Counted from the first letter of the stretch, positions 5,466 through 62,096 are shown. The stretch: 64,000 nt of DNA from Bacteroidales bacterium (GCA_045629225.1 JAZQQU010000023.1:14257-78256), one strand, 5' to 3'. Program-made: numbers and translations. Notes: a model not told the origin generated them from the letters alone.

Positions 5466-5690
5466 AATTGTGAACCCACAAAAACTTGCCAGAAACGCTG
5501 GCGAAAAATTGTGGACACACAAAGGTTTGCCAGAAACGCTGGTAAAGAATTGTGGACACACAAAGGTCTGCCATAAACGCTGGTCAAAGCATTGTGGATA
5601 CACAAAGGCCTGTCAGAAACGCTGGCTGAGATTTGTGGACACACAATGAGCTGACAGAAACTCTGGCAAGCAATTGTGGAAGAACAACGC
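5466..5690 (+). repeat. 41-bp-period tandem array 1 (about 5.4 units)
   Basis: Units start 5466, 5507, 5548, 5590, 5631, 5672; consensus AATTGTGGACACACAAAGGTyTGCCAGAAACGCTGGyaAAg with palindromes TTGTG-N4-CACAA and GCCAG-N5-CTGG. Confidence 0.9.
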
Positions 5691-5814
5691 ATCAACGAAG
5701 ACCTTTGGGGAACTAATCACCACGCAATACAATATATGACTTTGTGTAGATAGTTTTTAGATTATTTGCAAATGTGAAATGGCGTAAAAAGACCTCATTT
5801 CGCAAAAAATCGGG

Positions 5815-5876
5815 TGCAAAGATAAAGAATTTTTGGTAAAGTTGTACACTTTTGAGAAAAAATAATTATCTTTGCA
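5815..5876. promoter_or_regulatory. Divergent Bacteroidetes sigma-A -7 elements (topB / DUF4254 operon)
   Basis: TATCTTTGCA on minus strand at 5815-5824 and on plus strand at 5867-5876, matching TAnnTTTG. Confidence 0.65.
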
Positions 5877-5909
5877 CCAAATTTTGACTTTAACATATAA
5901 TTATATAAT

Positions 5910-6518
5910 ATGAAATTCACCGAACTTTGTGACGGCATCTTTAAGCAGTCGATTGCCGACTACCACAAGACTGATAACGTCGATACCCCTATCCAGAATC
6001 CCTTCGAGCAGGGTACCATTGAGTTCTTCCTTTACTTGAAGAACTGGATTGACACAGTGCAGTGGCACTTTGAGGACATTATTCGCGATCCAGAGATTGA
6101 TCCGTCTGCTGCCCTTGTGCTGAAACGCCGCATTGACAAGTCAAATCAGGATCGTACCGATCTGGTTGAGATGATCGATTCCTATTTCCTTGACACCTAT
6201 AAGAACGTTAAGGTGGCTGCAGGTGCTACCATCAATACCGAGTCGCCTGCTTGGGCTATCGATCGTTTGTCAATCCTCTATCTGAAGATCTATCACATGC
6301 AGGTTGAGGTGGATCGTACGGACGTTTCTGCTGAGCACCATGACAAGTGCCAACAGAAGCTTAATGTACTCCTCACCCAACATGAAGACCTCACCACAGC
6401 TATCAGCCAGCTTCTGGACGATATCGATGCAGGTCGTAAGTACATGAAAGTCTATAAGCAGATGAAGATGTACAACGATCCTAATCTCAATCCTGTGCTT
6501 TACGCCAACACTAAGTGA
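5910..6518 (+). CDS. DUF4254 domain protein
   Basis: WIDTVQWHFEDIIRDP...IDKSNQDRTDLVE...ESPAWAIDRLSIL motifs; adjacent to a GT9 gene. Confidence 0.85.
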   Translation: MKFTELCDGIFKQSIADYHKTDNVDTPIQNPFEQGTIEFFLYLKNWIDTVQWHFEDIIRDPEIDPSAALVLKRRIDKSNQDRTDLVEMIDSYFLDTYKNVKVAAGATINTESPAWAIDRLSILYLKIYHMQVEVDRTDVSAEHHDKCQQKLNVLLTQHEDLTTAISQLLDDIDAGRKYMKVYKQMKMYNDPNLNPVLYANTK

Positions 6519-7546
6519 TAGTCGGTCAGAACTCTATGGCAGGAATTCGCAAACTTCTGGTAATTCGCTTGAGTGCATTGGGCGACGTCTGTATGACGTT
6601 GCCCGTTCTTGATTCTCTGTGTAGGGCGTACCCTCAGATTGAAGTGACACTGCTCACCAGCAAGATAGCGACCCGTGTGGCTTCGACCATTATCCATTGC
6701 CCTAACCTGAAGCTTTTGGCTTTCAACAAGAATGACTACAAAGGCTTAAGTGGCTTGAATCGCTTGTATTATGAACTGCATTCCATGGGATTCGATGCTC
6801 TTGCCGACCTGCACGACGTGCTTCGTACCAAATGGGTAAGAACCCGTTTTCGCCTTGCAGGTACATTAGTCAAGGTCATTGACAAAGGCAGAGCCGAGAA
6901 GAAGGCACTGGTGGCTCATAAGACACAGCAGCAGCTCAAGAGTGGCTTTGAGCGTTATCAGCAAGTGTTTGCCGAATTGGGTTTGCCATTTGAACTTGAC
7001 TATGATGGCCGACGTGTAGCGCAGTCTCTCGAAGAGCCTGATATGTTTATACCAAAAGGTTCCATAGGCATTGCTCCCTTTGCTCAGCATCAGGGCAAGA
7101 TCTATCCTACTGTACAGATGTGCAGACTCATTGACTTGATCCTTGAGCGTTGCCCCGATCGTCATGTCTATCTGTTTGGAGGACACGAAGAGGCTTCAAC
7201 TCTCGAACAGTGGTGTCAGAAGTCGCCCGAACATGTTCATAATCTGGCTGGAACTCAAGGCATAGATATGGACTTGAGAGTGATGTCCCGATTACAGGTG
7301 ATGATCTCAATGGATTCGGCCAACATGCATCTGGCTTCGCTTGTCGGCCTGCGCTGCATCTCTGTGTGGGGGGCCACGCACCAATATGCAGGTTTTCTTG
7401 GTTATAGACAGCAGAAAGAGGATTGCATAGAGCTTCCACTTGCCTGTCGTCCCTGTTCGGTCTATGGAAATAAGCCCTGCAAATTTGGTGACTTCAGATG
7501 CATTGCTGGCATTGAACCGGAGATGATACTCCAGAGAATTCTCTGA
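6515..7546 (+). CDS. Glycosyltransferase family 9 (ADP-heptose:LPS heptosyltransferase-like)
   Basis: IRLSALGDV, DLH, MDSANMHLAS, WGAT, CRPCSVYGNKPC motifs. Confidence 0.9.
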   Translation: MIVGQNSMAGIRKLLVIRLSALGDVCMTLPVLDSLCRAYPQIEVTLLTSKIATRVASTIIHCPNLKLLAFNKNDYKGLSGLNRLYYELHSMGFDALADLHDVLRTKWVRTRFRLAGTLVKVIDKGRAEKKALVAHKTQQQLKSGFERYQQVFAELGLPFELDYDGRRVAQSLEEPDMFIPKGSIGIAPFAQHQGKIYPTVQMCRLIDLILERCPDRHVYLFGGHEEASTLEQWCQKSPEHVHNLAGTQGIDMDLRVMSRLQVMISMDSANMHLASLVGLRCISVWGATHQYAGFLGYRQQKEDCIELPLACRPCSVYGNKPCKFGDFRCIAGIEPEMILQRIL

Positions 7547-7600
7547 TCGAAGTCTTTAATAGGTTTCCCCCACTATTGTCCACAAATTAGTCACTGACAC

Positions 7601-8290
7601 ATGAAGATCTACATTGCCGAAGATGAACCGCTGGCATCTGCCAAACTTAAGTTATTCCTTGAGAAGGCAGGAGTCATTGCTGATATCTCCATCTACGGCG
7701 ATGGCATAAAACTCAAGCAGGCTATTGAGCAGCAGGGACTTCCGGACATTATCTTCCTCGATATACAGATGCCCAACCTCACGGGGTTGCAGTTCTTGCA
7801 GGATCTGCGCAAGCAGCAACTGTACTCTAATCATCACACTGACATCATCATTACCTCGGCTTACGACCAGTACGCTATTGATGGGTTCAACTTCGGTGTT
7901 ACAGATTATCTGCTCAAACCCTATACGCTCGATCGTTTGCGTCAGGCATTGGCTAAGGTTCGAGTTGAGCAAGCTGTGCTCAATATTCGAGCTGATGGCA
8001 GGAACGAGATAGTGAACATTGCTGACATAGTTTGCCTCGAGGCATTGAAGGACTATACCCGCCTCTCGTTAACTGATGGACGCATCATTACCACTTTGGG
8101 TACGTTGTCCAGCTTCGAACAGCAGTTGCCAAGTTCTCGGTTTACTCGCATTCAGCGATCTTATATTATTGGCATCGAGCACATACGCAGTTATAGTTCA
8201 CAATCAGTAGTTCTGACTACTGGAGCTGAAGTCCCCATTGGCAAGACATTTCGCGAATCATTTGAATCATCAATCAACCATAAACGATGA
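7601..8290 (+). CDS. LytR/AlgR-family response regulator (REC + LytTR)
   Basis: EDE, FLDIQMP, SAYDQYA, DYLLKP receiver motifs; FTRIQRSYII LytTR motif; no adjacent kinase. Confidence 0.92.
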   Translation: MKIYIAEDEPLASAKLKLFLEKAGVIADISIYGDGIKLKQAIEQQGLPDIIFLDIQMPNLTGLQFLQDLRKQQLYSNHHTDIIITSAYDQYAIDGFNFGVTDYLLKPYTLDRLRQALAKVRVEQAVLNIRADGRNEIVNIADIVCLEALKDYTRLSLTDGRIITTLGTLSSFEQQLPSSRFTRIQRSYIIGIEHIRSYSSQSVVLTTGAEVPIGKTFRESFESSINHKR

Positions 8291-9960
8291 ATATCCTGAC
8301 ACTCATTGGCTCCATTGGACTTTTTCTATTTGCCATGCAACTCATCAGCGAAAGCCTACAGAAGCTGGCAGGTGAACCCTTGCGCCATATTTTGTCGGCC
8401 ATAAAGGGCAATGTGCTCATGGGGATGCTGACGGGTCTTGGTGTCACGGCTTTGGTTCAGTCGTCGTCGGCAGTGACGGTCATGGCTGTTTCTTTTGTCA
8501 ACTCGGGACTGATCACGCTCTCGCAATCCATGGCTATGATTATGGGTGCCAACATTGGCACTACCATTACTGGCTGGATTATTGCTGGCATGGGTTTCAG
8601 TTTCGATGCACTCCATCTGGCCTTTCCGCTTGCTGCCTTTACGCTGCTGTTTTTTTCTTCTCGACGTAGCCGGGTATTATCGATTGGTGAACTTATCTTA
8701 GGCTTTTCGCTGCTCTTCATTAGTTTGTCAACTATGCAGACAGCATTTTTTGACCTTGACGGCCTGTGGTTACATCACCTGCTCTCTTCTGGTGGGCTGC
8801 TCCATTGGGTTTCAATATTTCTCGTGTTGCTCTGTGGCCTTATACTCACGTTGTTAGTCCGTTCGTCAAGCGCTGCCTTTGCACTATTCCTGCTCATGTG
8901 CACCAATGGTTGGATTTCTTTTGAACTTGCCTGTGCCCTGATAGTCATTGCCAACATAGGCACCTGCCTCCCTCCCATCCTTGCTTCACGCCAAGGCAAT
9001 GCAATGGCTCACCGTGCTGCATTCTGGCATCTGTTTTTCAACTGCTTTGGCATGGTATGGGCGCTGTTACTGCTTCTGTTCTGTGCTTCATTTTTGTCTG
9101 ACGTTTGTGTTAGCCTCGGTTTTGACGATCCTCATACTGCTTCCGGAGCACCCTTATCATTGGCATTATTCCACACATTGTTCAATCTCATTACTACTTG
9201 TCTGCTGCTTCCCTTTACACACCGTCTTGCAGAACATGCTGCAGGAAAGATAAACTTCAGTGATGTTGATGGGCAAAAAGCCTTCAATTTGCAATTTCTC
9301 TCGTCTGGACTTATATCTTCAGGCGAATTGGCTTTAGCACAAGTTCGCAAGGAGACTTCACGTTACAGCGAAGAGACGTACCAGATGTTTCTCAAGGTAC
9401 GCACCATGCTTGCTGAGCCATTGGGGTCTGAACGTCAACTCCAACTCAACGATGAGATCAGACAACTTGAAGAGGAGAGCGACCGTGCCGAAGTTGAGAT
9501 TGCTGATTTCCTCAATAAGATTTCGCCAAAATCATTGTCGCAACAAGGCGAAATGCTGAGTCGCAACCTCTATAAGATAGTCGATGAACTTGAATCGATT
9601 GCAGATTCGATCTATCATATCTCTGCCACGCTCTATGCAAAGAGCGAACAGCGTGTCCGCTTCAGTAATGAGCTGAACGCCAACGTCACCAAAATGTTTG
9701 ACCTCACTGACGATGCCCTTCAGCACATGGTCAAAGTGCTTTCCATGGAGGATGTACCACCCAATGCCCTCAACAAAGCTTATAACTTCGAGGACGAGAT
9801 CAATAATTTCCGCAATCTGTTTCGCAATACAGTGCTAGATCAGTTTGACCGTCAGGAAGTGGAATACCAACAGAGTACGTTCTTCATGATGCTGATCAAC
9901 GAATGCGAGAAGATTGGCGACTATGTGATCAATGTTGTCACTGCTGCATGCGAAAAATAA
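8287..9960 (+). CDS. Na/Pi cotransporter family protein with PhoU-like C-terminal domains
   Basis: QSSSAVT...GANIGTT repeat, multiple TM helices, ELESIAD/ECEKIGD PhoU-like motifs. Confidence 0.9.
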   Translation: MNILTLIGSIGLFLFAMQLISESLQKLAGEPLRHILSAIKGNVLMGMLTGLGVTALVQSSSAVTVMAVSFVNSGLITLSQSMAMIMGANIGTTITGWIIAGMGFSFDALHLAFPLAAFTLLFFSSRRSRVLSIGELILGFSLLFISLSTMQTAFFDLDGLWLHHLLSSGGLLHWVSIFLVLLCGLILTLLVRSSSAAFALFLLMCTNGWISFELACALIVIANIGTCLPPILASRQGNAMAHRAAFWHLFFNCFGMVWALLLLLFCASFLSDVCVSLGFDDPHTASGAPLSLALFHTLFNLITTCLLLPFTHRLAEHAAGKINFSDVDGQKAFNLQFLSSGLISSGELALAQVRKETSRYSEETYQMFLKVRTMLAEPLGSERQLQLNDEIRQLEEESDRAEVEIADFLNKISPKSLSQQGEMLSRNLYKIVDELESIADSIYHISATLYAKSEQRVRFSNELNANVTKMFDLTDDALQHMVKVLSMEDVPPNALNKAYNFEDEINNFRNLFRNTVLDQFDRQEVEYQQSTFFMMLINECEKIGDYVINVVTAACEK

Positions 9961-10152
9961 GAAATTGGATTATTAGGTTGTTGGGGTTTGAGGTCGATAG
10001 GACTTTTTTCATGTGGTCTCAAGGTTATGAGGATTTGAGTTCGAATTATATTAGTTTACCACTTAAACTTATATTCCATTTTAACCTGACGACCTCCGAA
10101 CCTACAACTATTCGCTAGTACGATAGATGAATAATGAATAAAAAACAATATA

Positions 10153-10749
10153 ATGTATTTAGAAAATAACTATTCCACCTTTAGCGAGAAACCAAGTGGA
10201 AGCATTGAGGTAATCTGCGGATCAATGTTCTCGGGCAAGACCGAGGAACTGATTCGTCGCATCAACCGAGTGAAGATTGCCCGTCAGAACATCATGATCT
10301 TCAAACCCACGCTCGACTATCGCTATAGTGCACACGACATAGTTTCGCATAGTCAGAATAGCATCGAAGCTATGCCTGTGCAGGCAGCTCGTGTCATATC
10401 GAATTTAGTCACTGACGAAGTGAAGGTAGTGGCTATAGACGAGGCCCAGTTCTTCGATGACAATCTTGTCGAAGTGGTTCATGAGCTGGCTTCGGCAGGC
10501 AAACGAGTGATTCTGGCAGGCCTTGACATGGACTACCTGGGTCAGCCATTTGGTCCCATGCCAGACCTCATGGCTATTGCCGACGATGTGTATAAGTGTC
10601 GTGCCATCTGTATGCGCTGTGGGCGTTTAGCCAACTTCTCTTATCGCATAGCCGATGCTTCTGAACGTGTCCTCATAGGTGAGAAAGAAGAGTATATGCC
10701 ACTTTGCCGCTCTTGTTACGAAGAACTCATGAAAGGAAAGAAAAAATAA
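10153..10749 (+). CDS. tdk: Thymidine kinase
   Basis: GSMFSGKTEELIRR, IDEAQFF, AGLDMDY, Zn-binding CxxC pairs. Confidence 0.97.
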   Translation: MYLENNYSTFSEKPSGSIEVICGSMFSGKTEELIRRINRVKIARQNIMIFKPTLDYRYSAHDIVSHSQNSIEAMPVQAARVISNLVTDEVKVVAIDEAQFFDDNLVEVVHELASAGKRVILAGLDMDYLGQPFGPMPDLMAIADDVYKCRAICMRCGRLANFSYRIADASERVLIGEKEEYMPLCRSCYEELMKGKKK

Positions 10750-10750
10750 T

Positions 10751-12727
10751 ATGATGAAACACTTGATCGTCTTCCTGAACTATTGCCAGTCTCGAATCCA
10801 GAATCCTGTATATAGACAATTCGCTAACATGTCTCTGGCTTCGCGCAATGCTTCGCTACTCTTCCTGAGCAAATCACTCGAAGAACGTGAATTATTGCAT
10901 GAGGTGAATGAACTGCGTCGTAAGGAAGAGGTAAAGAGTGACGTTTCGTTCCACATCTGCTGCTTGCTCGACCAGGAAGATCGTGGTCGCCAGATCATGC
11001 AGACTCTAACACTTATCCGTAAGTGTTTCCCTTCGAGTCAGGATTTGTCCTATCGTACTTTTGCTTATTGTCAGTTGCCAGACCTCAACCAGTGTTCAAC
11101 GGGTCAGCGCAATGCAGCCTGGAAGAGTCTGGTGAGCATTAATAATGCAGTCAACGACTACATCGATGTTAATCTGCTCAACGCCTGTTTTCTCTACAAT
11201 GATGACTCACAGCAAAGTTTAGCTCAGTTTCTTGTGAATATTACACAACACACCGATTTGTGTCAGCAGTTGTGCAAGCCATTAGTTGAAGGCAGCGATT
11301 TTCCTCCTGTTTTTGCCACTTTCAACGCAACAGGCATCAATTATCCAGACGATGAGGTCCGTTACCACTTACACCAGGCCTATCTGCATGCTCTTCTTTC
11401 ATATAGTCAGGTTGATAACAATCCTGTCGATATGGAGACCTGTAACCAACAAGCTGAGACACTCCTTTCGCTTGTACCGCTGGATAACAGTCGAGTCTGT
11501 TTTCAGGAGGACACCTTCATTGACATTAACTCAGATACATCTCGTCGCTGGGATGTACCATCATCGTATTGGGCTCAGGCCATAGACCTCTCAAGCCAAG
11601 GGTTGGCCGACCTGCCACGCGAGGAGTGGCTCCGTCAGATCAGCAATCGCGTTGAAGTTCTCTTCCAGAGTCGCTTCCGAGACTTGGGTGTGGAGTTTTT
11701 CTTTAACCTTGAGCTGAAGAAAACTACCGACTATGCACATGTGCTTTTTACAGTCATACAGCAAGAATTGGAGCAGACCATGCTGCGTTCTCCATATCCT
11801 CCATCAGTACTCAAAGACATTGTTCATGCTATAGTTAATCGTCTGCAGCAGAAGGTAATTGAGCTAAACCAACTGCATCAGCAGACCGAGACTCGGATTA
11901 GTGCTCTCATGAGCGAACTGAATGGTATGGTCAATCGTTGGAACAGTATGGGTATCTTCGACCGTCTGCGTGGACGCAACACGCAGCTCCTGGAACAATA
12001 TAAGCAACAGTTGCAACACTTGTTCGAACTGCGAACCCTCCTTCCTGGATGTCATTTCGCTACTAAGCTACTCAACGAGCTCATACCACAGGTTGCTGCC
12101 CTTTCAGATGGTAGTGACCGCTTGACGTCAGTCTGTCAGGAGGCTCTTGCCACGTTGCACCGCAATCTTGAGGAAAGCCAACCCGCTTCTCTCTCTGGCA
12201 TCTTCCCTATCGAACCCGTACGTCAGGCTGTCCAGGCCCTCACTCTGGACCGTGAGCATCTCTCACATCAGTATCTGCAGGTAGTCAACATTCTTTATGA
12301 CAAGAGTCGTATACTCGATGGCGAAGACCTGCTGCAACGTTTACGTACAAATTTGTCCGACCACATTGACCACTATCTCACCCATCGCATTCAGGATGGA
12401 ACATTGCCTGCTGTCATCGATGTCACTATTGTTGACAGACTGGCCAGTCTATACAACAACCGTGGCGGTCTTCCTTGTTTTATAGACGAACTGAAACAAT
12501 CAGCCGCCTTCACCCTTCTTTTGAAAGATGAAAGCGGCCAGATTGCAGACCCGTCGGCCACTGATGTCTATCAACTGGTAGCTCCAGAAAATGAGAACTT
12601 AGGTCCGCACATCAAGTCGCGAAATGGGTCGCAGCTTCAGATTCTGCATTTCAGACTTGGACTGAGTCTGCAGGATTTAGATGGCTTCACCGGCAAACGC
12701 ATGTTCGTCGAACCATCGCTTTTCTGA
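10751..12727 (+). CDS. Hypothetical protein; probable degenerate tubulin-like (Tubulin_2-type) domain plus helical/coiled-coil region
   Basis: 658 aa, begins 1 nt after the tdk stop; FHICC, LPD, NACFLY and FATF..INYPDDEV segments recall Tubulin_2 family but the glycine loops are absent. Confidence 0.45.
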   Translation: MMKHLIVFLNYCQSRIQNPVYRQFANMSLASRNASLLFLSKSLEERELLHEVNELRRKEEVKSDVSFHICCLLDQEDRGRQIMQTLTLIRKCFPSSQDLSYRTFAYCQLPDLNQCSTGQRNAAWKSLVSINNAVNDYIDVNLLNACFLYNDDSQQSLAQFLVNITQHTDLCQQLCKPLVEGSDFPPVFATFNATGINYPDDEVRYHLHQAYLHALLSYSQVDNNPVDMETCNQQAETLLSLVPLDNSRVCFQEDTFIDINSDTSRRWDVPSSYWAQAIDLSSQGLADLPREEWLRQISNRVEVLFQSRFRDLGVEFFFNLELKKTTDYAHVLFTVIQQELEQTMLRSPYPPSVLKDIVHAIVNRLQQKVIELNQLHQQTETRISALMSELNGMVNRWNSMGIFDRLRGRNTQLLEQYKQQLQHLFELRTLLPGCHFATKLLNELIPQVAALSDGSDRLTSVCQEALATLHRNLEESQPASLSGIFPIEPVRQAVQALTLDREHLSHQYLQVVNILYDKSRILDGEDLLQRLRTNLSDHIDHYLTHRIQDGTLPAVIDVTIVDRLASLYNNRGGLPCFIDELKQSAAFTLLLKDESGQIADPSATDVYQLVAPENENLGPHIKSRNGSQLQILHFRLGLSLQDLDGFTGKRMFVEPSLF

Positions 12728-36775: not shown

Positions 36776-36783
36776 AGACTCAG

Positions 36784-39417: not shown

Positions 39418-39596
39418 GATTACTAATCTTTGTAGCACCTGTTTCAAAGAAATTGAAATTAGCAGAATGCAGAAAACTCTGCAAATATACGCATTTTTAA
39501 TCAATGATGATGCATGTCATCAGGCTTAATTACATTTTTTTCACTCAAAGACTCCTTTTTGTATCACAATTGTAATGACGAGTTATTGAAATTGGC

Positions 39597-47280: not shown

Positions 47281-47342
47281 AAAAGAAGGTCGTCTCACGA
47301 CGACCATCTTCACTAACCTTAAATCTTATACCATGAAAAACA
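47279..47342 (-). ncRNA. Candidate ~64-nt small RNA (resembles Bacteroides paralogous FopS-like sRNAs, from memory)
   Basis: TTTG(47376-79)-N20-TATCTTTG(47348-55); body GUUUUUCAUGGUAUAAGAUUUAAGGUUAG; terminator GGUCGUC-GUGA-GACGACC + U-tract. Confidence 0.7.
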
Positions 47343-47396
47343 CGATGCAAAGATAGGGCCTTTTTCCTATATTTGCAAATTTATACATATAATTTA

Positions 47397-50169: not shown

Positions 50170-52341
50170 ATGGAGCAGAACAACCTTGATTTAGCCTACA
50201 ATTATGCACAATATACCCGCAGGAACATCTTCCTTACGGGCAAGGCTGGTACGGGCAAGACCACCTTTTTGCGACGACTGCAGAACGAGACCAGCAAGCG
50301 TATGATCGTGGTAGCTCCTACGGGTGTGGCTGCCATTAATGCGGGTGGTGTCACGATTCACTCGTTCTTCCAGCTGGCCCCGGGCTTGTATCTGCCAGGG
50401 CAGACCATTGGCGGCAGGGATCAAAAGTCAAAGTATTCGTTCTCAAAGCATAAGCTCAACATTCTTCGTTCTCTGGATCTGCTGGTAATCGACGAGGTTT
50501 CGATGGTGCGTTGCGACCTGCTCGATGCCATCGACGAGGTGCTGCGTCGTTACCAGAACCGCAATCTGCCTTTCGGTGGAGTTCAGCTGCTACTGATAGG
50601 CGATCTCCAGCAGCTGGCCCCCGTGGCTAAGGAGGACGAATGGTTGCTCTTGCGTAATGCCGGTTACCAGACGCCCTACTTCTTCGGCTCACAGGCACTC
50701 AACCGTACCAACTACACGACCATTGAGCTGACCAAAGTCTTTCGCCAGTCCGACCCTACTTTCGTCAATATGCTCAACCAGGTGCGCGACAACCGCATTG
50801 ATGCCCGTACTTTCGAGCTGCTCAACAGCCGCTATCTACCTGGTTTCAAACCGAAAGACAAGGACGGCTACATCACGCTGACCACCCACAACTATCAGGC
50901 ACAGGACATCAATCGCATGGAGCTGATGCTGCTGCCTTCACCTCCGATGACCTATAGTGCAGAGGTCAAGGGTGAGTTCCCCGAAATGTCGTACCCCACC
51001 GACGAGCAACTGGAGCTGAAGGTGGGGGCACAGGTGATGTTCTGCAAGAACGACCCTGGCAGACAATACTATAACGGCAAGATTGGCCAAGTGGTGAAGT
51101 GCGACGACGAACGTGTCTGGGTACGTTGCAACCCCGACTCGCTCGACCCCAACGGTTCGGAAGAAAAGATCATCGAGGTGACGCCTCAGGAATGGACCAA
51201 CGCCAAATACAAGACCGACACTTCGACCGGAGAGATCAGCGAAGAGGTTGTAGGTTCCTTCACCCAGATCCCCCTCAAGACCGCTTGGGCCATCACCATA
51301 CACAAGAGTCAGGGTCTCACCTTCGACCGTGCAATCATCAACGCAGGTCAGGCATTCAGCCCTGGTCAGGTGTATGTTGCTTTGTCACGTTGCCGCACGT
51401 TGGAGGGGCTGGTGCTGAGCACACCCATCCCACCTGGGGTAATTTCGGTCGATCCGCAGGTGCTGCAGTTCAACCAGATGCAAGTGGCTCCTACGGCCGA
51501 GGATCTGCGTCGTGATCGTCAGCAGTTCGTACTCGACATCCTTTGTCAGGTGTTCAACTTCGACCAGTTGCAGATGCGACTCAACTATGTGGTACGACTG
51601 ATGGACGAACACCTCTCACGTCAATATCCGCACAAGGTCAATTCGGCCAAGCAGATCTGCACAGCGGTCAACGAGCAACTGACGCTGGTAGGCCACACCT
51701 TCCAGAACCAGATACGTCAGCTCATGCCACAAGCCGAGGACTATGAGCACAACCTTGTTCTGCAAGAACGATTCTCCAAGGGCAACACCTACTATCTGAA
51801 CCACACAGCCGACCTGCTCCAGGACTTCATCGAGAATGGTTTGCCCGAGATAGACAACCAGACACATCGCGAACAGTTGGAACGTGAGTTCCAGATGCTG
51901 GAGAGCGACTACACGCTCAAAATCACCCTCTTCACCCGATTCAGCACCAAGGGCTTCTCACTCAACGACTACTGGGATGCCAAAGCCATAGCCACCATGG
52001 ACCCCGAAGCCAAGAAGGAACAGCGAGAGAAGGCCGAACGTGCCGCAGCTCGCAAGAAGAAACGTGAGGAGAAGAAGGCCGAAGCCAAGGTCAGCGTTTC
52101 GGAGGATGACGACATCCAGAACCAGGCACTCTTCGATGCACTCAAGGCTTGGCGCATCAAGAAGTCCATCATCCTGAAGGTACCACCCCCCTATATCATG
52201 CACAACGCCACCATGATTGCCATAGCCAACAACAAGCCCATGAACGAGAAAGAACTCCTCCGAATGCCAGGAGTAGGCAAGAAGGTGCTCGAAGCCTTCG
52301 GCAAGGAAATCCTCGAAATAGTTGGACGAGCAATCAAATAA
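50170..52341 (+). CDS. Pif1/RecD-like SF1B helicase with C-terminal HRDC domain
   Basis: TGKAGTGKT, APTGVAA, IDEVSM, GDLQQL, AITIHKSQGLT, YVALSR; HRDC LFDALKAWR...PGVG. Confidence 0.92.
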   Translation: MEQNNLDLAYNYAQYTRRNIFLTGKAGTGKTTFLRRLQNETSKRMIVVAPTGVAAINAGGVTIHSFFQLAPGLYLPGQTIGGRDQKSKYSFSKHKLNILRSLDLLVIDEVSMVRCDLLDAIDEVLRRYQNRNLPFGGVQLLLIGDLQQLAPVAKEDEWLLLRNAGYQTPYFFGSQALNRTNYTTIELTKVFRQSDPTFVNMLNQVRDNRIDARTFELLNSRYLPGFKPKDKDGYITLTTHNYQAQDINRMELMLLPSPPMTYSAEVKGEFPEMSYPTDEQLELKVGAQVMFCKNDPGRQYYNGKIGQVVKCDDERVWVRCNPDSLDPNGSEEKIIEVTPQEWTNAKYKTDTSTGEISEEVVGSFTQIPLKTAWAITIHKSQGLTFDRAIINAGQAFSPGQVYVALSRCRTLEGLVLSTPIPPGVISVDPQVLQFNQMQVAPTAEDLRRDRQQFVLDILCQVFNFDQLQMRLNYVVRLMDEHLSRQYPHKVNSAKQICTAVNEQLTLVGHTFQNQIRQLMPQAEDYEHNLVLQERFSKGNTYYLNHTADLLQDFIENGLPEIDNQTHREQLEREFQMLESDYTLKITLFTRFSTKGFSLNDYWDAKAIATMDPEAKKEQREKAERAAARKKKREEKKAEAKVSVSEDDDIQNQALFDALKAWRIKKSIILKVPPPYIMHNATMIAIANNKPMNEKELLRMPGVGKKVLEAFGKEILEIVGRAIK

Positions 52342-52437
52342 CCGAATCATCGAGCCATCGAACCATCAAGCCATCGAACCATCGAATTCTCGAAACATCG
52401 ATTTCTCGATTTCTCGAATCCTCGATTCATCGACCAT
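52342..52437 (+). repeat. Intergenic 8-bp-period repeat with phased TCGA
   Basis: TCGA at 52350, 52358, (TCAA 52366), 52374, 52382, 52390, 52398, 52406, 52414, 52422, 52430. Confidence 0.85.
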
Positions 52438-52483
52438 CACCCTTCCCTCCCACCACAAACAATCGCAAATCAAAACAAAATCA

Positions 52484-54766
52484 ATGAAACACCACATCCC
52501 CATGGCAACCTTAGCCACTATGACCCTGGCCACCGCCTGTGCACCAGCCACTAAGGAGAGCGAGGCAGACAATGCCCAAATCATCGGCCAAAGCACCATT
52601 CAGGCCGACCACCTCACACCCGAACTTCTGCAGGAGCTGGGCAAGATCAGCGACCTTCAGGCATCGCCCGATGGCTCACGTGTACTCTATGGTGTTGGCT
52701 ACACCAGCATCGCTCTCAACAAGGGCAATCGTGAACTCTTCGTAATGAATGCTGACGGCTCGGACAATCATGCCATCACCCATACCGCCTCGTCAGAGCA
52801 GAACGCCGTATGGAGTCTCGATGGCCAGAAGATCTTCTTCCTCAGTGCCGAGAGCGGTTCGATGCAGATGTGGCAGATGAATGCCGATGGCACCGGCCGC
52901 AAGCAGATCTCTGACTTCGACCGCGACATCGAGGGCTTCGTCCTGAGTCCCGACCAGCGTCAGGTGCTGGCTATCATGTCATTACCAATCGAGCGCATCG
53001 ACGACTCGCTCTTCGAGGGCCTCGACAAGACCACCGGTCGCCTGTGGGACGAGATGAACTACCGCCATTGGGACAACTTCGTTGACGACTGTCCTCACCC
53101 CTACCTTGCCCAACTCAACGATGACGGTTTGGTCAACAAAGAGAGCCTCAAGGACATTATGGAGGGCGAACCCTACGAGTGCCCGATGCGTCCGTTCGGT
53201 GGCGCGGAGTCTTTCGCATGGAGTCCTGACGGCAAGAAGCTCGTCTATGTGAGCCGCAAGGAGACGGGAACCGAATATGCCTTCTCTACCCGCTCTTCGC
53301 TCTATCTCTATGATGTAGAGAGTGGCCAGACCATCGACCTGCACCCTGGCGACCACGGCTACGACACCAACCCCAAGTTCAACGCCGATGGCTCACTCCT
53401 TGCCTTCCAGAGCATGGCTCGTAATGGCTACGAGAGCGACAAGAACCGCCTCTGTATCATCGACATGGCCCTAAAAGATCAAACCAACGAGGCAACCCCG
53501 GAACCCAATCAACCAATTAACGAAACAGCAAAACAACAGCCCAACGCCATCCTCGACCTGACCGCCAGCTACGACAACAACTGCGACGACTACACCTGGG
53601 CACCCGACCAGCAGTCGATCACCTTCATCAGCTACTCGTATGGTACCGCGCAGGTATTCAACGTCAACCTCCAGGGCGAGGTCAAGCAGCTGAGTGACGG
53701 TTCGGATCATGACTTTGGTGGCTTGTGCTATTGTGGCGACAAGCTGCTCACCCTGCGTCACGACTGGCACTCGCCCAACGAGATCTTTGCGCTCAACGCT
53801 GACCGAAGCGCCACACAGCTCACTCACGAGAACGATGCCCTGCTGGCTCAGCTCGGCGACATGGGCAAGTTCGAGCGTCGCTGGATGAAGTGTACAAATG
53901 GCGATTCGATGCTCGTCTGGGTAGCCTATCCCGTTGGCTTCGACCCACAGAACTACACAACCTCAAAACCTCAAAACCCCACAACCTCAAAACCTCAAAA
54001 CCCCACAACCTCAAAACCTCAAAGCAAAATACCCACCCTCCTCTACTGCCAAGGTGGCCCTGAAAGTGCTGTCAGTCAGTTCTGGAGCACACGCTGGAAC
54101 ATTGCCATCATGCAGGCCAACGGCTATGCCATCGTGCTGCCTAACCGCCATGGTGTCCCTGGATTCGGCCAGAAGTTCAACGAGCAGATCGCAGGTGACT
54201 TTGCTGGTCAATGCATGCGCGACTACTTCACAGCCATCGACAACATCGCCAAGGAACCTTGGTGCGACACCGATCGTCTGGGTGCTGTCGGAGCCTCGTT
54301 TGGCGGCTACTCGGTCTATTGGCTGGCTGGGCATCATCAGCAGCGATTCAAGTGCTTCATCGCCCATTGCGGCATCTTCAACTGCGAGTCGATGTATGGC
54401 GAAACCGAGGAGATGTGGTTTGCCGACTGGGATTACGGTGGAGCCTACTTCGGTCAGGACGGCCTCAAGGAGGGTCTTTGCCACACTCCCAGACGTGGAA
54501 ATGGTGGCGTCAATGCCTGCTATACCGATTCGCCTCACAAGTCCGTCACCAAGTGGGACACTCCAATCCTCGTGATCCACAACGAGCATGACTACCGCAT
54601 CCCTGTCACTCAGGGTATGCAGGCATTCAACCTTGCCCGTATGCGTGGAATCCCAGCCGAGTTCCTCTATTTCCCCGACGAATGCCATTGGGTAACCAAG
54701 CCACAGAACGCCGTGCTCTGGCAACGCGTCTATTTCAACTGGCTCGATAAGTGGCTGAAGAAATGA
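52484..54766 (+). CDS. S9 family prolyl oligopeptidase / dipeptidyl peptidase (DPP5-like)
   Basis: Signal ending ATAC; WD40-like WSPDG blades; GGPE, GASFGG nucleophile, DYRIP, DECHW; ATG 52484. Confidence 0.92.
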   Translation: MKHHIPMATLATMTLATACAPATKESEADNAQIIGQSTIQADHLTPELLQELGKISDLQASPDGSRVLYGVGYTSIALNKGNRELFVMNADGSDNHAITHTASSEQNAVWSLDGQKIFFLSAESGSMQMWQMNADGTGRKQISDFDRDIEGFVLSPDQRQVLAIMSLPIERIDDSLFEGLDKTTGRLWDEMNYRHWDNFVDDCPHPYLAQLNDDGLVNKESLKDIMEGEPYECPMRPFGGAESFAWSPDGKKLVYVSRKETGTEYAFSTRSSLYLYDVESGQTIDLHPGDHGYDTNPKFNADGSLLAFQSMARNGYESDKNRLCIIDMALKDQTNEATPEPNQPINETAKQQPNAILDLTASYDNNCDDYTWAPDQQSITFISYSYGTAQVFNVNLQGEVKQLSDGSDHDFGGLCYCGDKLLTLRHDWHSPNEIFALNADRSATQLTHENDALLAQLGDMGKFERRWMKCTNGDSMLVWVAYPVGFDPQNYTTSKPQNPTTSKPQNPTTSKPQSKIPTLLYCQGGPESAVSQFWSTRWNIAIMQANGYAIVLPNRHGVPGFGQKFNEQIAGDFAGQCMRDYFTAIDNIAKEPWCDTDRLGAVGASFGGYSVYWLAGHHQQRFKCFIAHCGIFNCESMYGETEEMWFADWDYGGAYFGQDGLKEGLCHTPRRGNGGVNACYTDSPHKSVTKWDTPILVIHNEHDYRIPVTQGMQAFNLARMRGIPAEFLYFPDECHWVTKPQNAVLWQRVYFNWLDKWLKK
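53956..54023 (+). repeat. In-frame 24-bp (3x8) tandem repeat encoding (TTSKPQNP)n
   Basis: CACAACCTCAAAACCTCAAAACCC about 2.8 times within the peptidase gene. Confidence 0.9.
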
Positions 54767-55878: not shown

Positions 55879-57078
55879 ATGTTCAAAGCCCTTTCAGACC
55901 ATTGGTTCCTGACCGAACCTGCCCTCTTCGCGCTCTATTGCCAGCAGCAGCTGGAGGAGAACGTGAGGATGGATTGTGCCGTACGTTGTGGCCAGGGGCG
56001 TGTGGAATACAACCCTTTGATCCTCGCGCACAAGAACTTCATGGAGGTAGAGCAGCTGGTGCGCATCGAGCTGATACGCCTCTTCCTGAAACATCCCTAC
56101 GAACGTGAGCCCGATGGCTGTTCGCGCGAAGCCATGACCCTGGGCAGCAACATCACCATAGCCGATGGCTACTGCCTCCTGCATAAGGATAAGCTGCCTC
56201 TGCACGACCCTGCCTACTATCATCTGCCTTTGGGTCAATATTACGAATGGTACGTGAAGGCTGTGAGTCAGCAAGGAGAGGATAACCGTAACGATAACGC
56301 TAACGATAACCCAAACCAAAACGATAACGATAACCTAAACCAAAACGATAACCCAAACCCAAACCATAACGATAACCCCAGCAACAACCCGAACACTAAC
56401 GAACAGCAAAACAACGCCTTAGCCTCACAATCGCAGCTGTGGCATGACGACTCCCTGCGCCGCCAGCAGATCAACGAGCTCATTGAGCGCACCTCCGACT
56501 GGGGCACCCTGCCCACCGACATCGTGGAGCACATCAAAGCCTCGACCCACGCCCGCATCGACAACCGCCTGATCTGGCAAGGGTTCCGAAGTGCTGTACT
56601 GAGCGAACATCGCAAGCTGACCCGTATGCGTCCGAATCGTCGCACAGGCTTCCTGCAGATGGGTAGCACACGCCGCTTCAACACCCGTCTGCTCGTAGCC
56701 ATCGATGTGAGTGGCAGCATCAACAAAGCCATGCTCAGCGACTTCTTCTCGGCCGTGAACCGACTGGTTCGCTATGGAATAGCCCAGACCGATGTCTGCC
56801 AGTTCGATGCACAGATTGGCGAGGTCAAGCCCTTGCTCCAAGCCCGCACCCAAGTCGAGATACATGGCCGTGGAGGTACTAACTATCAGCCCGTTATCGA
56901 CTACGCAAGCAGCTGCCATGAAGCCTACGATGGTCTCATCATCCTGACCGATGGACAAGCCCCTGCCCCCGCCACTCAACACCTGCACATCCCTCTGCTC
57001 TGGGTTTGCTCCGATCGCCAAGCCTACGAATCCACGCACGAATGGATGCTGCGAAGTGGCCGTTGCTGTCATTTATAG
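55879..57078 (+). CDS. DUF2201-type protein: degenerate metallopeptidase-like domain + vWA domain
   Basis: DVSGS MIDAS, GRGGT, ILTDG; N-region IELIRLFLKH where HExxH is expected; Asn-rich linker. Confidence 0.85.
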   Translation: MFKALSDHWFLTEPALFALYCQQQLEENVRMDCAVRCGQGRVEYNPLILAHKNFMEVEQLVRIELIRLFLKHPYEREPDGCSREAMTLGSNITIADGYCLLHKDKLPLHDPAYYHLPLGQYYEWYVKAVSQQGEDNRNDNANDNPNQNDNDNLNQNDNPNPNHNDNPSNNPNTNEQQNNALASQSQLWHDDSLRRQQINELIERTSDWGTLPTDIVEHIKASTHARIDNRLIWQGFRSAVLSEHRKLTRMRPNRRTGFLQMGSTRRFNTRLLVAIDVSGSINKAMLSDFFSAVNRLVRYGIAQTDVCQFDAQIGEVKPLLQARTQVEIHGRGGTNYQPVIDYASSCHEAYDGLIILTDGQAPAPATQHLHIPLLWVCSDRQAYESTHEWMLRSGRCCHL

Positions 57079-58782: not shown

Positions 58783-58947
58783 TTACCAATCCTCTTCGTC
58801 TTCGAAGTTATTGCCACTCACAGTGAATAGAGGTTTTTCACTCGTGCAGATAACATCCGCACCCTTAATTTCTGCCACCTTGATCTGTGGCTTTGCATAC
58901 GCCTTCAGCTGGCAACCAGAAGCACATGCGTTAGTCGTTTTGTTCAT
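58783..58947 (-). CDS. Small unannotated 54-aa peptide (YxKP...ICTS motif, acidic tail ending W)
   Basis: MNKTTNACASGCQLKAYAKPQIKVAEIKGADVICTSEKPLFTVSGNNFEDEEDW*, A-rich upstream region, double stop; below ORF-track cutoff. Confidence 0.7.
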   Translation of the reverse strand: MNKTTNACASGCQLKAYAKPQIKVAEIKGADVICTSEKPLFTVSGNNFEDEEDW

Positions 58948-59055
58948 GAATGATAAAAATTTTTATAGGTTTTGGTTTGTTGCTACTACCTTCATTTCGG
59001 CAATTGTAGCCTCGCTAACAAGGGCAATTTTCTACACCTGCCCGCAGAAAAATGA

Positions 59056-61581
59056 TTATTCGTCTTCAGCAAACTTCATGCGGCTTGAATCCCAGCCGTA
59101 AGAAGATGGGGCCTCCTCAACAGCCTTTCGGAATTGTTCACTTGTGCCATACACCGTTAGCCAATCACCAGCGGCATTTGATCCACAACCATTGCCGAAC
59201 ATAGAGGTCCCTGGCAGAAAGTCTTTGTTTAGAGTTATTTTTTTAAGAACCGAACATCCTGAAAACATAGAGCTCATATCTTTCTCATATCTTGTGTCCC
59301 ATGACGCGAGGTCAAGTTCCACCAAAGCCGAACAACCTGAGAACATGCCACTCATATTCGACACACCACCCACGTCAAGATGCTCAAGACCGCTGATTTC
59401 GGTTAACGAATTGAAATCCTTGAAGTAGTCGGAACAATCAGTTGGGGCAATGATTTTGCTTGCTGGAGTCTGGATTTTTAACTTATTGTCAGTAGTCACA
59501 GCCCAAAGTGTGCCGTTTGCATCTAGTATAGTGCAATCCATGCTAGGTTCATAGGAGCTGACATCAACGCTTGTCTCGAACGAAATGGAAGATACAATCC
59601 ATCCAAATGTCGACAACTGAGATTTCGTCAAAACAGGCGGCACACCTTCAGGAAATTTCATGCGTGATGAATCCCAGCCAGTATCAGAATACTTAATGAC
59701 ACTCTCCCTGAATTCTTCACTTGTACCGTACACCGTTAGCCAACCATCAGCGGCATTTAATCCACAATTATCGCCGAAAAAACCAATACCAGGCCAAAAG
59801 TCTTCGTTGAGTGTCAGTTTTTTAAGAACCAAACATCCCGAAAAGACGGCATCCATCTGAACTACGTCATTTGAAATAACGAAATGGGATAAGTCAAGCT
59901 CCGTCAGAGAAGCACAATCCTTGAACATCGAAGAAAAGTTCCTCACTTTCTCGGTTTTGAATTTGCTAACGAAATCAAAGTTCGTCAACAATTTGCAACC
60001 ATCAAACATTAATGCCATCATCTCCACTTTATCGGTCGTAAACGATGAAGGAAGGGTGAGGCTGGTCAATTTTGCACAACCTGAGAACAACCCGACCATA
60101 TTTGTAACGTTAGCTGTGTTGAACGACGAAAGGTTAAGTTCGTTCAAGTTGGCACATCCTGAGAACATTGCAGCAATATTTTCCGCGTTATCGGTCTTAA
60201 ACGAAGAAGGAAAGGTGAGGCTGGTCAAACTGCCACATCCTGCGAACATGCCGCTCATATCCGTAACTTTAGCAGTATTGAACGAGCTGATGTTGAGCGT
60301 CCGCAAAGCCGAACAATCGTAGAACATGTTGCTCATATCTTCAACATTGCTTGTGTTCCACGACGAAAGATCGAGTACCTCCAAATCCGAACATGCTGAG
60401 AACATGCCACTCATATTCGTCACGCCACTCACGTCAAGATGTTCAAGACCGCTGATTTGGGTTACCGAAAAATCCCTGAAGAGATCAGAACAATCCGTTG
60501 GAGCGATTATTTTGCTTGCAGATGTCTGGATTTTTATGCTATTCGAGCCATCACTCACCTCCCACAACTTACCAGTCTCATTAAGAGGATGGTGTCCCTC
60601 GTCTTCCTGATACGAGCTGACATCAATGCCAGTCTCAAATGTAATGGTGGAAGTTTTCCAGTCGGCCAGCTGCAGTGGGTATTCCCACGCCATTGGGTTT
60701 ATGCTTACCTGCACCTTGTACACCTTGCCCAGGATGATGTTCTCCTTGGGTTCGGCGATGATTTTACTGTGGGAGAAGTCGTAGAGACCATAATATATAA
60801 AATAGTCATCTCCCTCATCAAACTTTGGAGGAATAACGAAATATGCTTTGCTATTGGCTGCAATGGTGTGTGTTTGAGCAGACTCAGCATATAACTCCGT
60901 TGGACGTGAAAAAACAAATACATCATTTTGGGAGGATGACAGGTTTTCATACTCAATATCACCTTCAAAGTATTCTCCGTAATTATCAATTTGACATACT
61001 TCAATATCCCTATCCGTATTATTGTGTACGCAAGCCAAGGCGTATGGAGCAGTCAGGACAGCACTTAATTCCCATCTGTCTTCATCCACATTTACATTGC
61101 CGAACAGGAAGCAGTCCTCAGGGTTTGAAATGGCAATCGGAAGGCTGATTACAACTTGCCCTGGATCTAGGTTATTCTCTCTATTTAACTTGCCACCTAC
61201 ATAGGCGTAGACAAATTTACCACCATTGTCTAAAAAGTCATCCTGCACTTCGCTGGTAAATTCACCTTTGCTTACATTGTAGGTGAATGGGAATTCATAG
61301 TATTGGCCGGACTTAGTGGCTAACACCGTCACCACATCGCCATTATTCCAGCCGGTGATGCGGAAAGCATCTTCCTTCCCATCTACGTCCTCAACGGAAA
61401 CGCGTGTCTCGTCACCCAGCTCGGCCGAAGCCTTGAGCGTTATGGTGCGTGTACCCACAGCTGGCTGCTCAGGCACTATGGGCTGTTCGTCAATCACGGG
61501 ATCACTATCACTTGAGCAGGCGGTCATCATCGTCATGCTCAGGGCCAGCAGGGTGCTGGCTGCGGTATAGAACTGCTTCAT
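59056..61581 (-). CDS. Lipoprotein with fimbrillin-like N-domain and two BspA/DUF285 LRR modules
   Basis: Paralog of 57259..58734; many MFxGCxxLxxL...FxT repeats; duplicated KIIAPTDCS N-cap and WLTVYGTSE..GWDSSRMKF C-cap; TATCTTTGCA promoter at 61713-61722. Confidence 0.85.
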   Translation of the reverse strand: MKQFYTAASTLLALSMTMMTACSSDSDPVIDEQPIVPEQPAVGTRTITLKASAELGDETRVSVEDVDGKEDAFRITGWNNGDVVTVLATKSGQYYEFPFTYNVSKGEFTSEVQDDFLDNGGKFVYAYVGGKLNRENNLDPGQVVISLPIAISNPEDCFLFGNVNVDEDRWELSAVLTAPYALACVHNNTDRDIEVCQIDNYGEYFEGDIEYENLSSSQNDVFVFSRPTELYAESAQTHTIAANSKAYFVIPPKFDEGDDYFIYYGLYDFSHSKIIAEPKENIILGKVYKVQVSINPMAWEYPLQLADWKTSTITFETGIDVSSYQEDEGHHPLNETGKLWEVSDGSNSIKIQTSASKIIAPTDCSDLFRDFSVTQISGLEHLDVSGVTNMSGMFSACSDLEVLDLSSWNTSNVEDMSNMFYDCSALRTLNISSFNTAKVTDMSGMFAGCGSLTSLTFPSSFKTDNAENIAAMFSGCANLNELNLSSFNTANVTNMVGLFSGCAKLTSLTLPSSFTTDKVEMMALMFDGCKLLTNFDFVSKFKTEKVRNFSSMFKDCASLTELDLSHFVISNDVVQMDAVFSGCLVLKKLTLNEDFWPGIGFFGDNCGLNAADGWLTVYGTSEEFRESVIKYSDTGWDSSRMKFPEGVPPVLTKSQLSTFGWIVSSISFETSVDVSSYEPSMDCTILDANGTLWAVTTDNKLKIQTPASKIIAPTDCSDYFKDFNSLTEISGLEHLDVGGVSNMSGMFSGCSALVELDLASWDTRYEKDMSSMFSGCSVLKKITLNKDFLPGTSMFGNGCGSNAAGDWLTVYGTSEQFRKAVEEAPSSYGWDSSRMKFAEDE

Positions 61582-61874
61582 TATTTCTTCTGTTTTTATG
61601 TTTGGCAGGTTATAAATCCTCTTCGTTTTTGAATTATTACCAATTCAAGTTTCTCGCAAGCTCCACTTGACTGGGGAAGTTAGAGGGCGTTAGCTCAACT
61701 CAATTTTCACGCTGCAAAGATACGCGTATTTTTGCACATTTCCAAAATTTTAGTCAACTATTTTTCGGCATACAGCGTTTTTTTGAAAAACGCCGGGGGT
61801 CTTGTCAAAGTTGTCATTGTCATCTTGTCAATATAGTAGAGTGACTTTTCCTGCCGGCAGTAGACTCATTAGCT

Positions 61875-62096
61875 TGCCCGAGTTGCTGGCAAGAAATCCG
61901 ACAGCTCGAAAAGCCCGCCAGAGTTGCTGGCAAAAAAATCGACAGCTCGAAAAGCCCGCCAGAGTTGCTGACAAGGAATCCGACAGCTCGAAAAGCCCGC
62001 CAGAGTTGCTGACAAAAAAATCGACAGCTCGAAAAGCCCGCCAGAGTTGCTGGCAAGGAATCCGACAGCTCGAAAAGCCTGCCAGAGTTTGCTGAC
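61875..62096 (+). repeat. 41-bp-period tandem array 3 (about 5.3 near-identical units)
   Basis: GAGTT at 61880, 61921, 61962, 62003, 62044, 62085; unit GAGTTGCTGrCAArrAAwyCGACAGCTCGAAAAGCCCGCCA. Confidence 0.95.

Follow-up and report, generated by a model that had tools for sequence, protein, structure and literature searches.

Bacterial genomes are thought to tolerate scant repetitive non-coding DNA, and the well-studied families of such repeats (REP/REPIN, BOX, MIRU and Correia) are each defined by sequence. Pneumococcal BOX elements, with their tandem boxB modules, and mycobacterial MIRUs are intergenic, are built of 40-50-bp tandem modules with stem-loop potential and often lie within operons; the ends of BOX are the fixed boxA and boxC, while a MIRU measures 46-101 bp and contains small open reading frames (ORFs). 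Neither is known to place interchangeable unrelated palindromes on a fixed lattice. We describe intergenic tandem arrays that do, starting from three of them in a 64,000-nt stretch of DNA from a Bacteroidales bacterium (GCA_045629225.1 JAZQQU010000023.1:14257-78256; the whole stretch is called the window below), where an original prediction made from the sequence alone had noticed 41-bp repeat units with two palindromes each. The unusual feature of these arrays is that their geometry, a 21/42-bp dyad lattice, is conserved while their sequences are interchangeable within a genome and replaced between sister species.

Three described systems come closest. Repetitive extragenic palindromes (REPs) have at one end a GTAG or CGTC tag that stays unpaired, and they are paired head-to-head or tail-to-tail, with head-to-tail dimers absent or negligible (PMC3733652). 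BrickBuilt, a MITE (miniature inverted-repeat transposable element) or minisatellite of Porphyromonas gingivalis, has a 23-nt unit, a conserved leader and tail with terminal inverted repeats, and 19 copies, and its report gives no BLASTn match outside P. gingivalis (PMC4596501). At the sopC locus of the F plasmid, a 43-bp unit is repeated directly 12 times, and every copy includes a 16-bp inverted repeat to which SopB binds (PMC3177203). The reading that we prefer, at about even confidence, is that the arrays form a lineage-specific superfamily of extragenic palindromic minisatellites, akin to REP/BIME-2 (BIME, bacterial interspersed mosaic element) and to BrickBuilt but a member of neither, which spreads by local duplication and by exchange between arrays.

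The three window arrays, all on the + strand, lie at 5466-5690 (array 1, about 5.5 units), 36520-36775 (array 2, about 6 units) and 61875-62096 (array 3, 5.4 units) and have a period of 41 bp. Tandem Repeats Finder (TRF) delimited them to 5466-5680 (period 41, 5.2 copies, 81% matches), to 36773 from a start at 36524 or 36532 (period 41, 5.9 copies, 73% matches) and to 61876-62096 (period 41, 5.3 copies, 88% matches), the last with a marked 82-bp higher order, as the matches rose to 94% at period 82. Motif scans and TRF agreed with the positions originally predicted, and the motif scans also with the single 42-bp step in each of arrays 1 and 2. Each unit combines a palindrome P1, GCCAG-N5-CTGGC, with a second short palindrome P2, whose dyad lies 20.5 bp from that of P1. 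With up to one mismatch, P1 has 16 matches in the window, where shuffled sequence gives 1.97 +/- 1.35 and none of 100 shuffles reaches 16; 13 of the matches fall within the three arrays and the remaining three at 10560, 16418 and 63516. Exact TGTG-N4-CACA, the P2 of arrays 1 and 2, occurs 11 times (2.15 +/- 1.2 expected, no shuffle reaching 11), with 10 of the sites in these two arrays and none in array 3, where (T/C)CGA-CAGC-TCGA holds the same slot. All three arrays are located between ORFs and are non-coding, a period of 41 bp being incompatible with coding; such ORFs as cross them consist of the array sequence itself.

The source genome, that of an uncultured gut bacterium, is a 3.56-Mb draft metagenome-assembled genome (MAG) of 105 contigs with 50.7% GC, 86% completeness and a reported contamination of 2.9%. 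A whole-genome TRF search for arrays of at least three copies returned 49 rows at period 41 and 38 at period 42, with the neighbouring periods nearly empty (3 rows at 36, 1 at 43 and 1 at 48). Merging of the rows gave 116 arrays with periods of 40-43 or 81-86 bp, of which 105, totalling 19,853 bp or 0.56% of the genome, were joined in one cluster through shared 9-mers. One linked 81-bp array was excluded as coding-looking, and the 104 retained have periods of 41, 42 or 84 bp; many of them touch contig ends. When the arrays were masked, 104 of 104 lay between ORFs of at least 100 aa. The P1/P2 family with its 41-bp period accounts for 46 arrays, so the expectation that the window copies are a sample of many genome-wide proved right for the family as for the wider set. 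An nhmmer census of the units split its matches into half-units on both strands and was unusable for counts. Exact TGTG-N4-CACA was found 279 times genome-wide and 49 times in shuffles, and consecutive P2 copies up to 130 bp apart showed spacings of 41 (128), 42 (20), 82-84 (16) and 123-125 bp (5) only.

In the 41-bp family the unit is made of P1, often lengthened to CTTGCCAG-N5-CTGGCAAG, and P2 in its TTGTG-N4-CACAA form, P2 otherwise being TCGA-N4-TCGA. Several 42-bp families have in one slot a long hairpin of unrelated sequence and in the other a short palindrome resembling P2 or P1. The long hairpins comprise at least five unrelated sequences, among them B (AGGGGCAAAA-N8-TTTTGCCCCT), C (GTCTTAT-N12-ATAAGAC), E (AGTCCGAC-N10-GTCGGACT), F and F2 (TCAACA.../TTGACAC...) and G (CTTCATCAC...), with further hairpin families besides, and the module families number at least seven overall. 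Unlike modules also share single arrays in one 42-bp register, as in the order E-E-B-F2-E-E-E at C10:58707-58980; the GCCAG...CTGGC core is thus itself exchangeable, its 42-bp register being taken over by unrelated long hairpins. The exchange of the second palindrome at a fixed position, proposed from the window, recurred in the 137 P1-P1 intervals of the genome, of which 63 carry TGTG-N4, about 18 TGTGC/GCACA variants, 11 (T)CGA-N4 and the rest others or none. A likeness of TGTGGA(T/C) to the DnaA box was dropped, since it is matched by only part of the P2 loops and not by P2 of the TCGA type.

Measured genome-wide, the distances from centre to centre of unlike modules fell almost entirely on one lattice. 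The distance was 20.5 bp in 66 of 77 P1-P2 pairs, 21 bp in 12 of 12 B-P2 and 9 of 9 F2-P2 pairs, 21 (6) or 63 bp (3) in the 9 E-P2 pairs, 42 bp in 13 of 15 B-F2 pairs, and 42 (17) or 84 bp (5) in the 22 B-E pairs. In the scored P1-P1 intervals the dyad of the second palindrome lay 20.5 bp from that of P1 in 92 of 131, in agreement with the predicted distance of about 20 bp. Neighbouring perfect hairpins with stems of at least 7 bp showed spacing peaks at 21 (97), 42 (112) and 84 bp (23) over a background of at most 10 per bin. The spacings being multiples of 20.5-21 bp, the basic step is therefore one dyad per two helical turns. The arrays are real, non-coding and numerous, and their interchangeable modules keep strictly to a dyad lattice of 20.5-21 bp.

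Comparison with related genomes indicates that the array sequences are private to the species and that the geometry is common to most of the genus. The P1-P2 pattern had 66 matches in the source genome, and searches of 24 congeners and of 16 genomes from the order's other families gave none. A two-unit pattern had no match in public genome contigs; its two matches in metagenome contigs were due to chance, neither having a tandem repeat. P2-P2 at unit spacing had 148 matches in the source genome and one in 38 congeners, which was a terminator-like hairpin with a T run in G051 and no array. Sites of the E hairpin numbered 36 in the source genome, 41 in G049, 35 in G051, 1-2 in three other congeners and none in 33, and E-E at 42-bp spacing retrieved two Bacteroidales records only from the public genome contigs, together with one chance single match.

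The geometry was surveyed by TRF on samples of 79-360 kb per congener, counting periods of 40-43 or 82-86 bp, some of which may belong to coding arrays. Arrays of their own, with species-specific unit sequences, were found in 10 of the 13 congeners sampled: 15 in 360 kb of G051, 5 in 120 kb of G017, 4 in 120 kb of G021, 3 in 176 kb of G045, 2 each in G005 (100 kb), G018 (86 kb) and G013 (100 kb), 1 in 81 kb of G043, 1 weak array in 85 kb of G050, and 6 in 164 kb of G049, the last a biased count from regions picked around E matches. No array was detected in the samples of G042 (100 kb), G048 (96 kb) and G046 (79 kb), or in 147 kb sampled outside the family from four genomes, one of which supplied 100 kb.

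At the site of array 1, 12 congener loci with both flanks aligned have an unaligned stretch of 9-62 bp, and TRF detected no 41-bp array in 13 congener loci. The spacer of array 2, read directly, measures 44 bp in G051, 23 bp in G017 and 18 bp in G021, and the gap between aligned flanks was 38-87 bp in all five congeners searched. These alignments indicate a recent gain of arrays 1 and 2, two of the three in the window; the flanks of array 3 were not conserved in the five congeners searched. In the reverse comparison of 14 arrays of G051, five had both flanks on one source contig, and the source spacer held an array in two cases and none in three. One orthologous pair, C18:31321-31508 in the source genome and L043:17050-17192 in G051, is similar in its P1-like half, and its short palindrome is TTGTG-N4-CACAA in every unit of the source and TTCGAG-N2-CTCGAA in every unit of G051. 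Public sequencing runs contained at most 0.07 of the sampled words, and four DNA runs gave short low-depth contigs only, one of which, 172 nt long, matches 5585-5756 with one difference and is too short to show copy-number variation.

Among described systems, REP/BIME is the one whose behaviour the arrays resemble most, in being extragenic, palindromic, mosaic, species-specific and biased towards gene 3' ends. REP/BIME-2 elements too are high-copy short extragenic palindromes that are species-specific, form regularly spaced mosaic clusters and fall into several families per genome (PMC3733652, PMC2817692); REPs lie mostly at gene 3' ends, and some families (CGTC REPs) reportedly have no dedicated transposase. 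The suggestion of a REP/BIME-like element nevertheless failed as to membership in all three defining features tested. No end tag was present in the unit logo and consensus lists, where GACG, which is CGTC on the other strand, appeared only as a P2 loop (41 of 196 sites). Instead of alternating in orientation, every array is a head-to-tail series of direct repeats in TRF. No RAYT gene, that is, no Y1/HUH transposase (PF01797), was found in the source genome or in the array-bearing G051, G017, G021 and G045; the domain is present in 14 of 39 genomes (38 congeners and the source) and bears no relation to array content. The arrays further differ from REPs in that the two palindromes of a unit are unrelated, not inverted copies, and in the 21/42-bp lattice.

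BrickBuilt shares with the arrays the order Bacteroidales, an always intergenic location, spacerless short tandem units, restriction to a species by BLAST and predicted stem-loops; it occupies about 0.44% of the P. gingivalis genome against 0.56% here, and its 23-nt unit is near one lattice step. The present arrays differ from that description in the 41-42-bp period, two dyads per unit, at least seven module families and about 104 arrays, and the window arrays have no conserved leader, tail or terminal inverted repeat. When the 200-bp flanks of all 104 arrays were compared with one another by BLAST, those of the window arrays matched no other flank. Many of the other flank matches are neighbouring repeat units, and five loci (C48, C52, C69, C77 and C81) have 150-620 bp in common beside their arrays. 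We also observed a non-array sequence of about 290 bp at C52:2158-2450 with copies on C66, C104, C86, C85, C87 and C28, making at least seven loci at 72-86% identity.

The likeness to sopC is confined to array geometry, that is, direct tandem repeats each bearing a short inverted repeat; sopC is a single plasmid locus beside sopAB with one motif, whereas the arrays occupy about 104 chromosomal loci with several motifs. A partition centromere or plasmid iterons were rejected on the number of loci and because the neighbours of the window arrays include no partition or rep genes. A clustered regularly interspaced short palindromic repeat (CRISPR) array was likewise rejected: the units abut without unique spacers, and no cas-like domain was found among 14 neighbouring proteins scanned. 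With the multi-copy proteins scanned as well, the original observation that neither a transposase nor a cas gene is linked to the arrays held. A scan of the window against Rfam 15 gave no match at the arrays, and a literature search, supplementary files not covered, yielded no account of such 41-42-bp arrays from Bacteroidales or Prevotella. Paper, Rfam and feature comparisons thus agree with the initial statement that no described family matches.

The preferred reading, a minisatellite superfamily growing and exchanging without an enzyme of its own, would work as follows. Arrays would grow in place as blocks of one or two units are duplicated by strand slippage or unequal exchange, a view taken because the 82-84-bp higher order fits local block duplication. 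Arrays would undergo recombination or gene conversion with one another by way of the short palindromes that they share, whereby new spacers would be seeded and modules swapped, and no element-encoded transposase would take part. The period would be kept since only in-register exchange survives, and arrays would be tolerated chiefly near gene 3' ends and inside operons, where palindromes may do little harm. We take this reading because the periods spike at 41/42 bp, the modules obey the lattice and two window sites were recently filled; because the sequence is lineage-restricted, the geometry is wider and the short palindromes of two species differ at an orthologous array; and because the stems are under selection or conversion, the placement is REP-like and the orientation follows no rule.

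Conservation within the units was compared over 164 units from 34 arrays. Stem identity was 0.79 within and 0.77 between arrays, and that of loops and linkers 0.55 within and 0.43 between. The stems of P1 and P2 are kept as sequence, almost without alternative Watson-Crick pairs. Since stems are equally conserved between and within arrays while loops and linkers drift, we think, as a weaker inference, that the palindromes may also be read by one or more host DNA-binding proteins on one helix face, every two turns. No covariation was found in P1, P2 or the E hairpin, and compensatory changes in the latter were ruled out, the inner pairs being Watson-Crick in 0.53 of cases against 0.61 with shuffled partners. 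The inner segment of the E hairpin occurs in two mirror orientations in near-equal numbers (14 and 13), and subfamilies of hairpin C differ in a similar flip of the loop; we infer that this is the pattern expected from recombination within a hairpin or cruciform.

The same observations bear on a different account, in which the arrays are phased binding sites with a cellular role and one or more dimeric proteins recognise the palindromes from one helix face every two turns and assemble into a higher-order nucleoprotein structure that serves nucleoid organisation, insulation or silencing, the sequence turnover being co-evolution of protein and site. We consider it possible but improbable. It would fit the strict 20.5-21-bp dyad lattice irrespective of module sequence, the preservation of 4-5-bp stems as sequence and not by covariation, and loops that are free in sequence but fixed in length. 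The concerted swap of the short palindrome at the orthologous array of two species points the same way, as does the geometry, which is like that of F-plasmid sopC (PMC3177203). The hairpin potential of array 3 is so slight that structure is a poor reason for its conservation. Stem sequence conservation, fixed loop lengths and two-turn spacing would be better explained if proteins read the sites, which we hold to be improbable. Against such a role, no candidate protein was identified, and at least seven unrelated modules per genome would demand several proteins or one that reads structure. The gain and loss of arrays between close species, with orthologous spacers lacking them, argue against a conserved local function, and the neighbours are unrelated housekeeping genes.

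Mobilisation was considered as a further explanation. Miniature single-strand transposable units of 41-42 nt with two hairpins might be inserted head to tail by a structure-specific enzyme acting in trans, each next to a motif of the existing units, so that arrays grow unit by unit. Unlike units do stand in exact register in mixed arrays; arrays begin and end at arbitrary unit positions without terminal inverted repeats; and near-identical units recur at many loci. Unrelated long hairpins moreover have a conserved palindromic tetranucleotide at the apex, which is GTAC in families C (38 of 39 hairpins), F (21 of 32) and F2 (20 of 28) and TGCA in family B (72 of 75). We take these apices to be reminiscent of loop-specific nicking sites. 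P1 and P2, however, have neither apex, and PF01797 is lacking from the source genome and from the four other array-bearing genomes named above. No transposase was found among 19 multi-copy proteins scanned, which came from 18 of 25 listed paralogue groups. The greater similarity within arrays and the 82-84-bp higher order point instead to local duplication. A weak orientation trend with local GC skew, 26 to 14 of 40 arrays, counts in favour of such insertion but is not significant (Fisher p = 0.09). On balance this mechanism is unlikely. As a separate observation, GTAC is scarce genome-wide, with 9023 occurrences against about 13961 expected from base composition.

Orientation was assigned in the 41-bp family from the A-rich or T-rich linkers. 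With respect to the flanking genes, the 46 arrays comprise 14 co-directional and 15 anti-directional ones in tandem contexts, 10 between convergent and 3 between divergent genes and 4 with one flank missing. The co-orientation that had been put forward as a family property was therefore not borne out, whether against transcription or against GC skew. The shared orientation of the three window arrays is ascribed to chance because the 46 arrays show no orientation rule, and three arrays are expected to be oriented alike one time in four; the absence of a rule is itself expected for near-symmetric DNA elements. The 87 array-bearing spacers are 52 tandem, 23 convergent and 12 divergent, where 64.9, 11.0 and 11.1 were expected by spacer count (p = 0.0004), and the median distance of arrays is 94 bp to gene 3' ends and 163 bp to 5' ends.

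This placement is what would recommend a role as RNA, in which transcribed hairpin arrays terminate transcription, stabilise 3' ends, belong to 5' UTRs or are processed into small RNAs: arrays lie nearer gene 3' ends and are enriched between convergent genes. Array 2, moreover, sits inside what in relatives is a tight two-gene operon and is thus probably transcribed, another array has a promoter-like TAnnTTTG box on one side and a DUF6261 gene on the other, and arrays 1 (z = -5.4, as RNA) and 2 (z = -8.0, as DNA) fold better than shuffles. Array 3, folded as RNA, is no better than shuffles (z = -0.7). In tandem contexts the orientation is the same as that of the genes in 14 cases and opposite in 15; stem mismatches are without strand bias, G-T showing no excess over A-C on either strand (125 against 160); there is neither covariation in P1, P2 and the E hairpin nor an Rfam match at the arrays. 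The repeated-hairpin RNA that the original prediction entertained is hence not supported. It is the reading most at odds with the data, and we rate it marginally below the already unlikely unit-wise insertion.

Several points weigh against the minisatellite superfamily as we have set it out. Neither a mobilising enzyme nor an exchange event was seen, and spread between loci is deduced only from the near-identical units of families B and C, which occur at several loci, and from the comparison of filled with empty sites. An inherited period alone does not readily explain that unrelated long hairpins fit one 42-bp frame or that stems are held at the sequence level. The stem-conservation figure is inflated for P2, because P2 matches served to select the units. 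All genomes compared are draft MAGs, the source at 86% completeness, so that absences are provisional. Without masking, 47 of the 104 arrays were mostly inside crudely called ORFs of at least 100 aa; in 38 of the 47 the part of the ORF beyond the array is shorter than 150 codons, and the remaining 9 have the look of N-terminal (start-codon) over-extension of a neighbour. The convergent excess, finally, is weak per base, with 54.0 tandem, 15.9 convergent and 17.1 divergent spacers expected by spacer length (p = 0.09).

A bolder interpretation, which we offer tentatively and think improbable, is that of a ruler-constrained repeat system across an uncultured gut Bacteroidales genus, with dyad sites every two turns (21 bp; 41-42-bp units), swappable unrelated palindromes and complete sequence turnover between sister species under a constant geometry. 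If true, it would imply a dedicated trans-acting machine, namely either a recombinase or a DNA-binding protein that reads structure or spacing; the arrays that such a machine builds or uses would be either the bacterial equivalent of satellite chromatin or miniature mobile elements of a novel kind. A lattice that reflects a protein or enzyme with a ruler would open a way into the study of nucleoid organisation, or of a new mechanism of mobilisation, in Bacteroidales, which are a dominant group in the gut. Should it reflect only an inherited satellite geometry, the arrays would still be a clean bacterial case of concerted satellite evolution. In practical terms, the arrays break short-read assemblies, many being at contig ends, and create spurious ORFs.

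Array 1 lies between two diverging genes, a topoisomerase gene at 3226-5343 (-) and a DUF4254 gene at 5910-6518 (+). Its P2 copies, TGTG-N4-CACA, start at 5469, 5510, 5551, 5593 and 5634, with a decayed copy near 5675, and its P1 copies at 5488, 5529, about 5570 (decayed), 5612 and 5653. The surrounding spacer, 5344-5783 (about 440 bp), is without counterpart in the congeners. The spacer around array 2, 36463-36783, measures 321 bp from stop to start and separates two genes of the same strand, the stop of a DUF5686/CarboxypepD_reg gene at 36784-39504 (-) and the start of a GT2 gene at 35338-36462 (-). Here P2 is found at 36524, 36565, 36606, about 36648 (decayed), 36689 and 36730, and P1 at 36543, 36584, 36625 and 36667, the subsequent copies being decayed. 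Within the GT2 gene, a 9/18-bp tandem repeat with the unit GTTTGAGAAGATTGAAGG was observed at 35984-36039.

Array 3 has P1 at 61876, 61917, 61958, 61999 and 62040 and a copy with an indel near 62081, and it lies between a BspA-type leucine-rich repeat/DUF285 gene at 59056-61581 (-) and a diverging CotH gene that starts at 62384 (+). To the left of this array and upstream of the BspA-like gene, two segments of the region 61704-61873, about 61704-61833 and about 61841-61873, recur at 77-97% identity at several loci of G051, G045 and G021 and may represent a leader or promoter that the genes of a surface-protein family have in common.

In the source genome, no gene family other than DUF6261 has four copies at 70% identity or more (C43:5709-6707 (-), C18:67717, C19:37114 and C83:2). 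The copy on C43 has a P1/P2 array, C43:6774-6952, 67 bp upstream, behind a TAnnTTTG-like box; of the other copies, one is without an array and two are cut at the 5' side by contig ends. Several housekeeping genes, among them those for the ATP synthase gamma subunit, glutamine synthetase III, adenylosuccinate lyase and cytochrome c552, are doubled at 70% identity or more, which suggests strain mixture or contamination in the draft assembly.

The only Rfam match in the window was the Bacteroidetes small RNA FopS at 47276-47343 (-), with 70 bits against a gathering score of 56; it agrees with the placement of the genome in Bacteroidales. Other repeats were also encountered. In G051, 9/27-bp repeats of the GTTYGARGG type, similar to the 9/18-bp repeat of the GT2 gene, match at more than 40 places and recur in TRF, which makes this a second dispersed short-repeat family. 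A CRISPR-like array, in which a 37-bp repeat returns with a period of 72-74 bp, extends over L042 (C11) 400-11072 of G051 and has no relation to the 42-bp arrays. In the window, tandem repeats of 8/24 and 159 bp at 52343-52433, 53956-54023, 56281-56389 and 60029-60327 lie inside the ORFs 52322-54766, 55879-57078 and 59056-61581 and are probably coding repeats of surface proteins.

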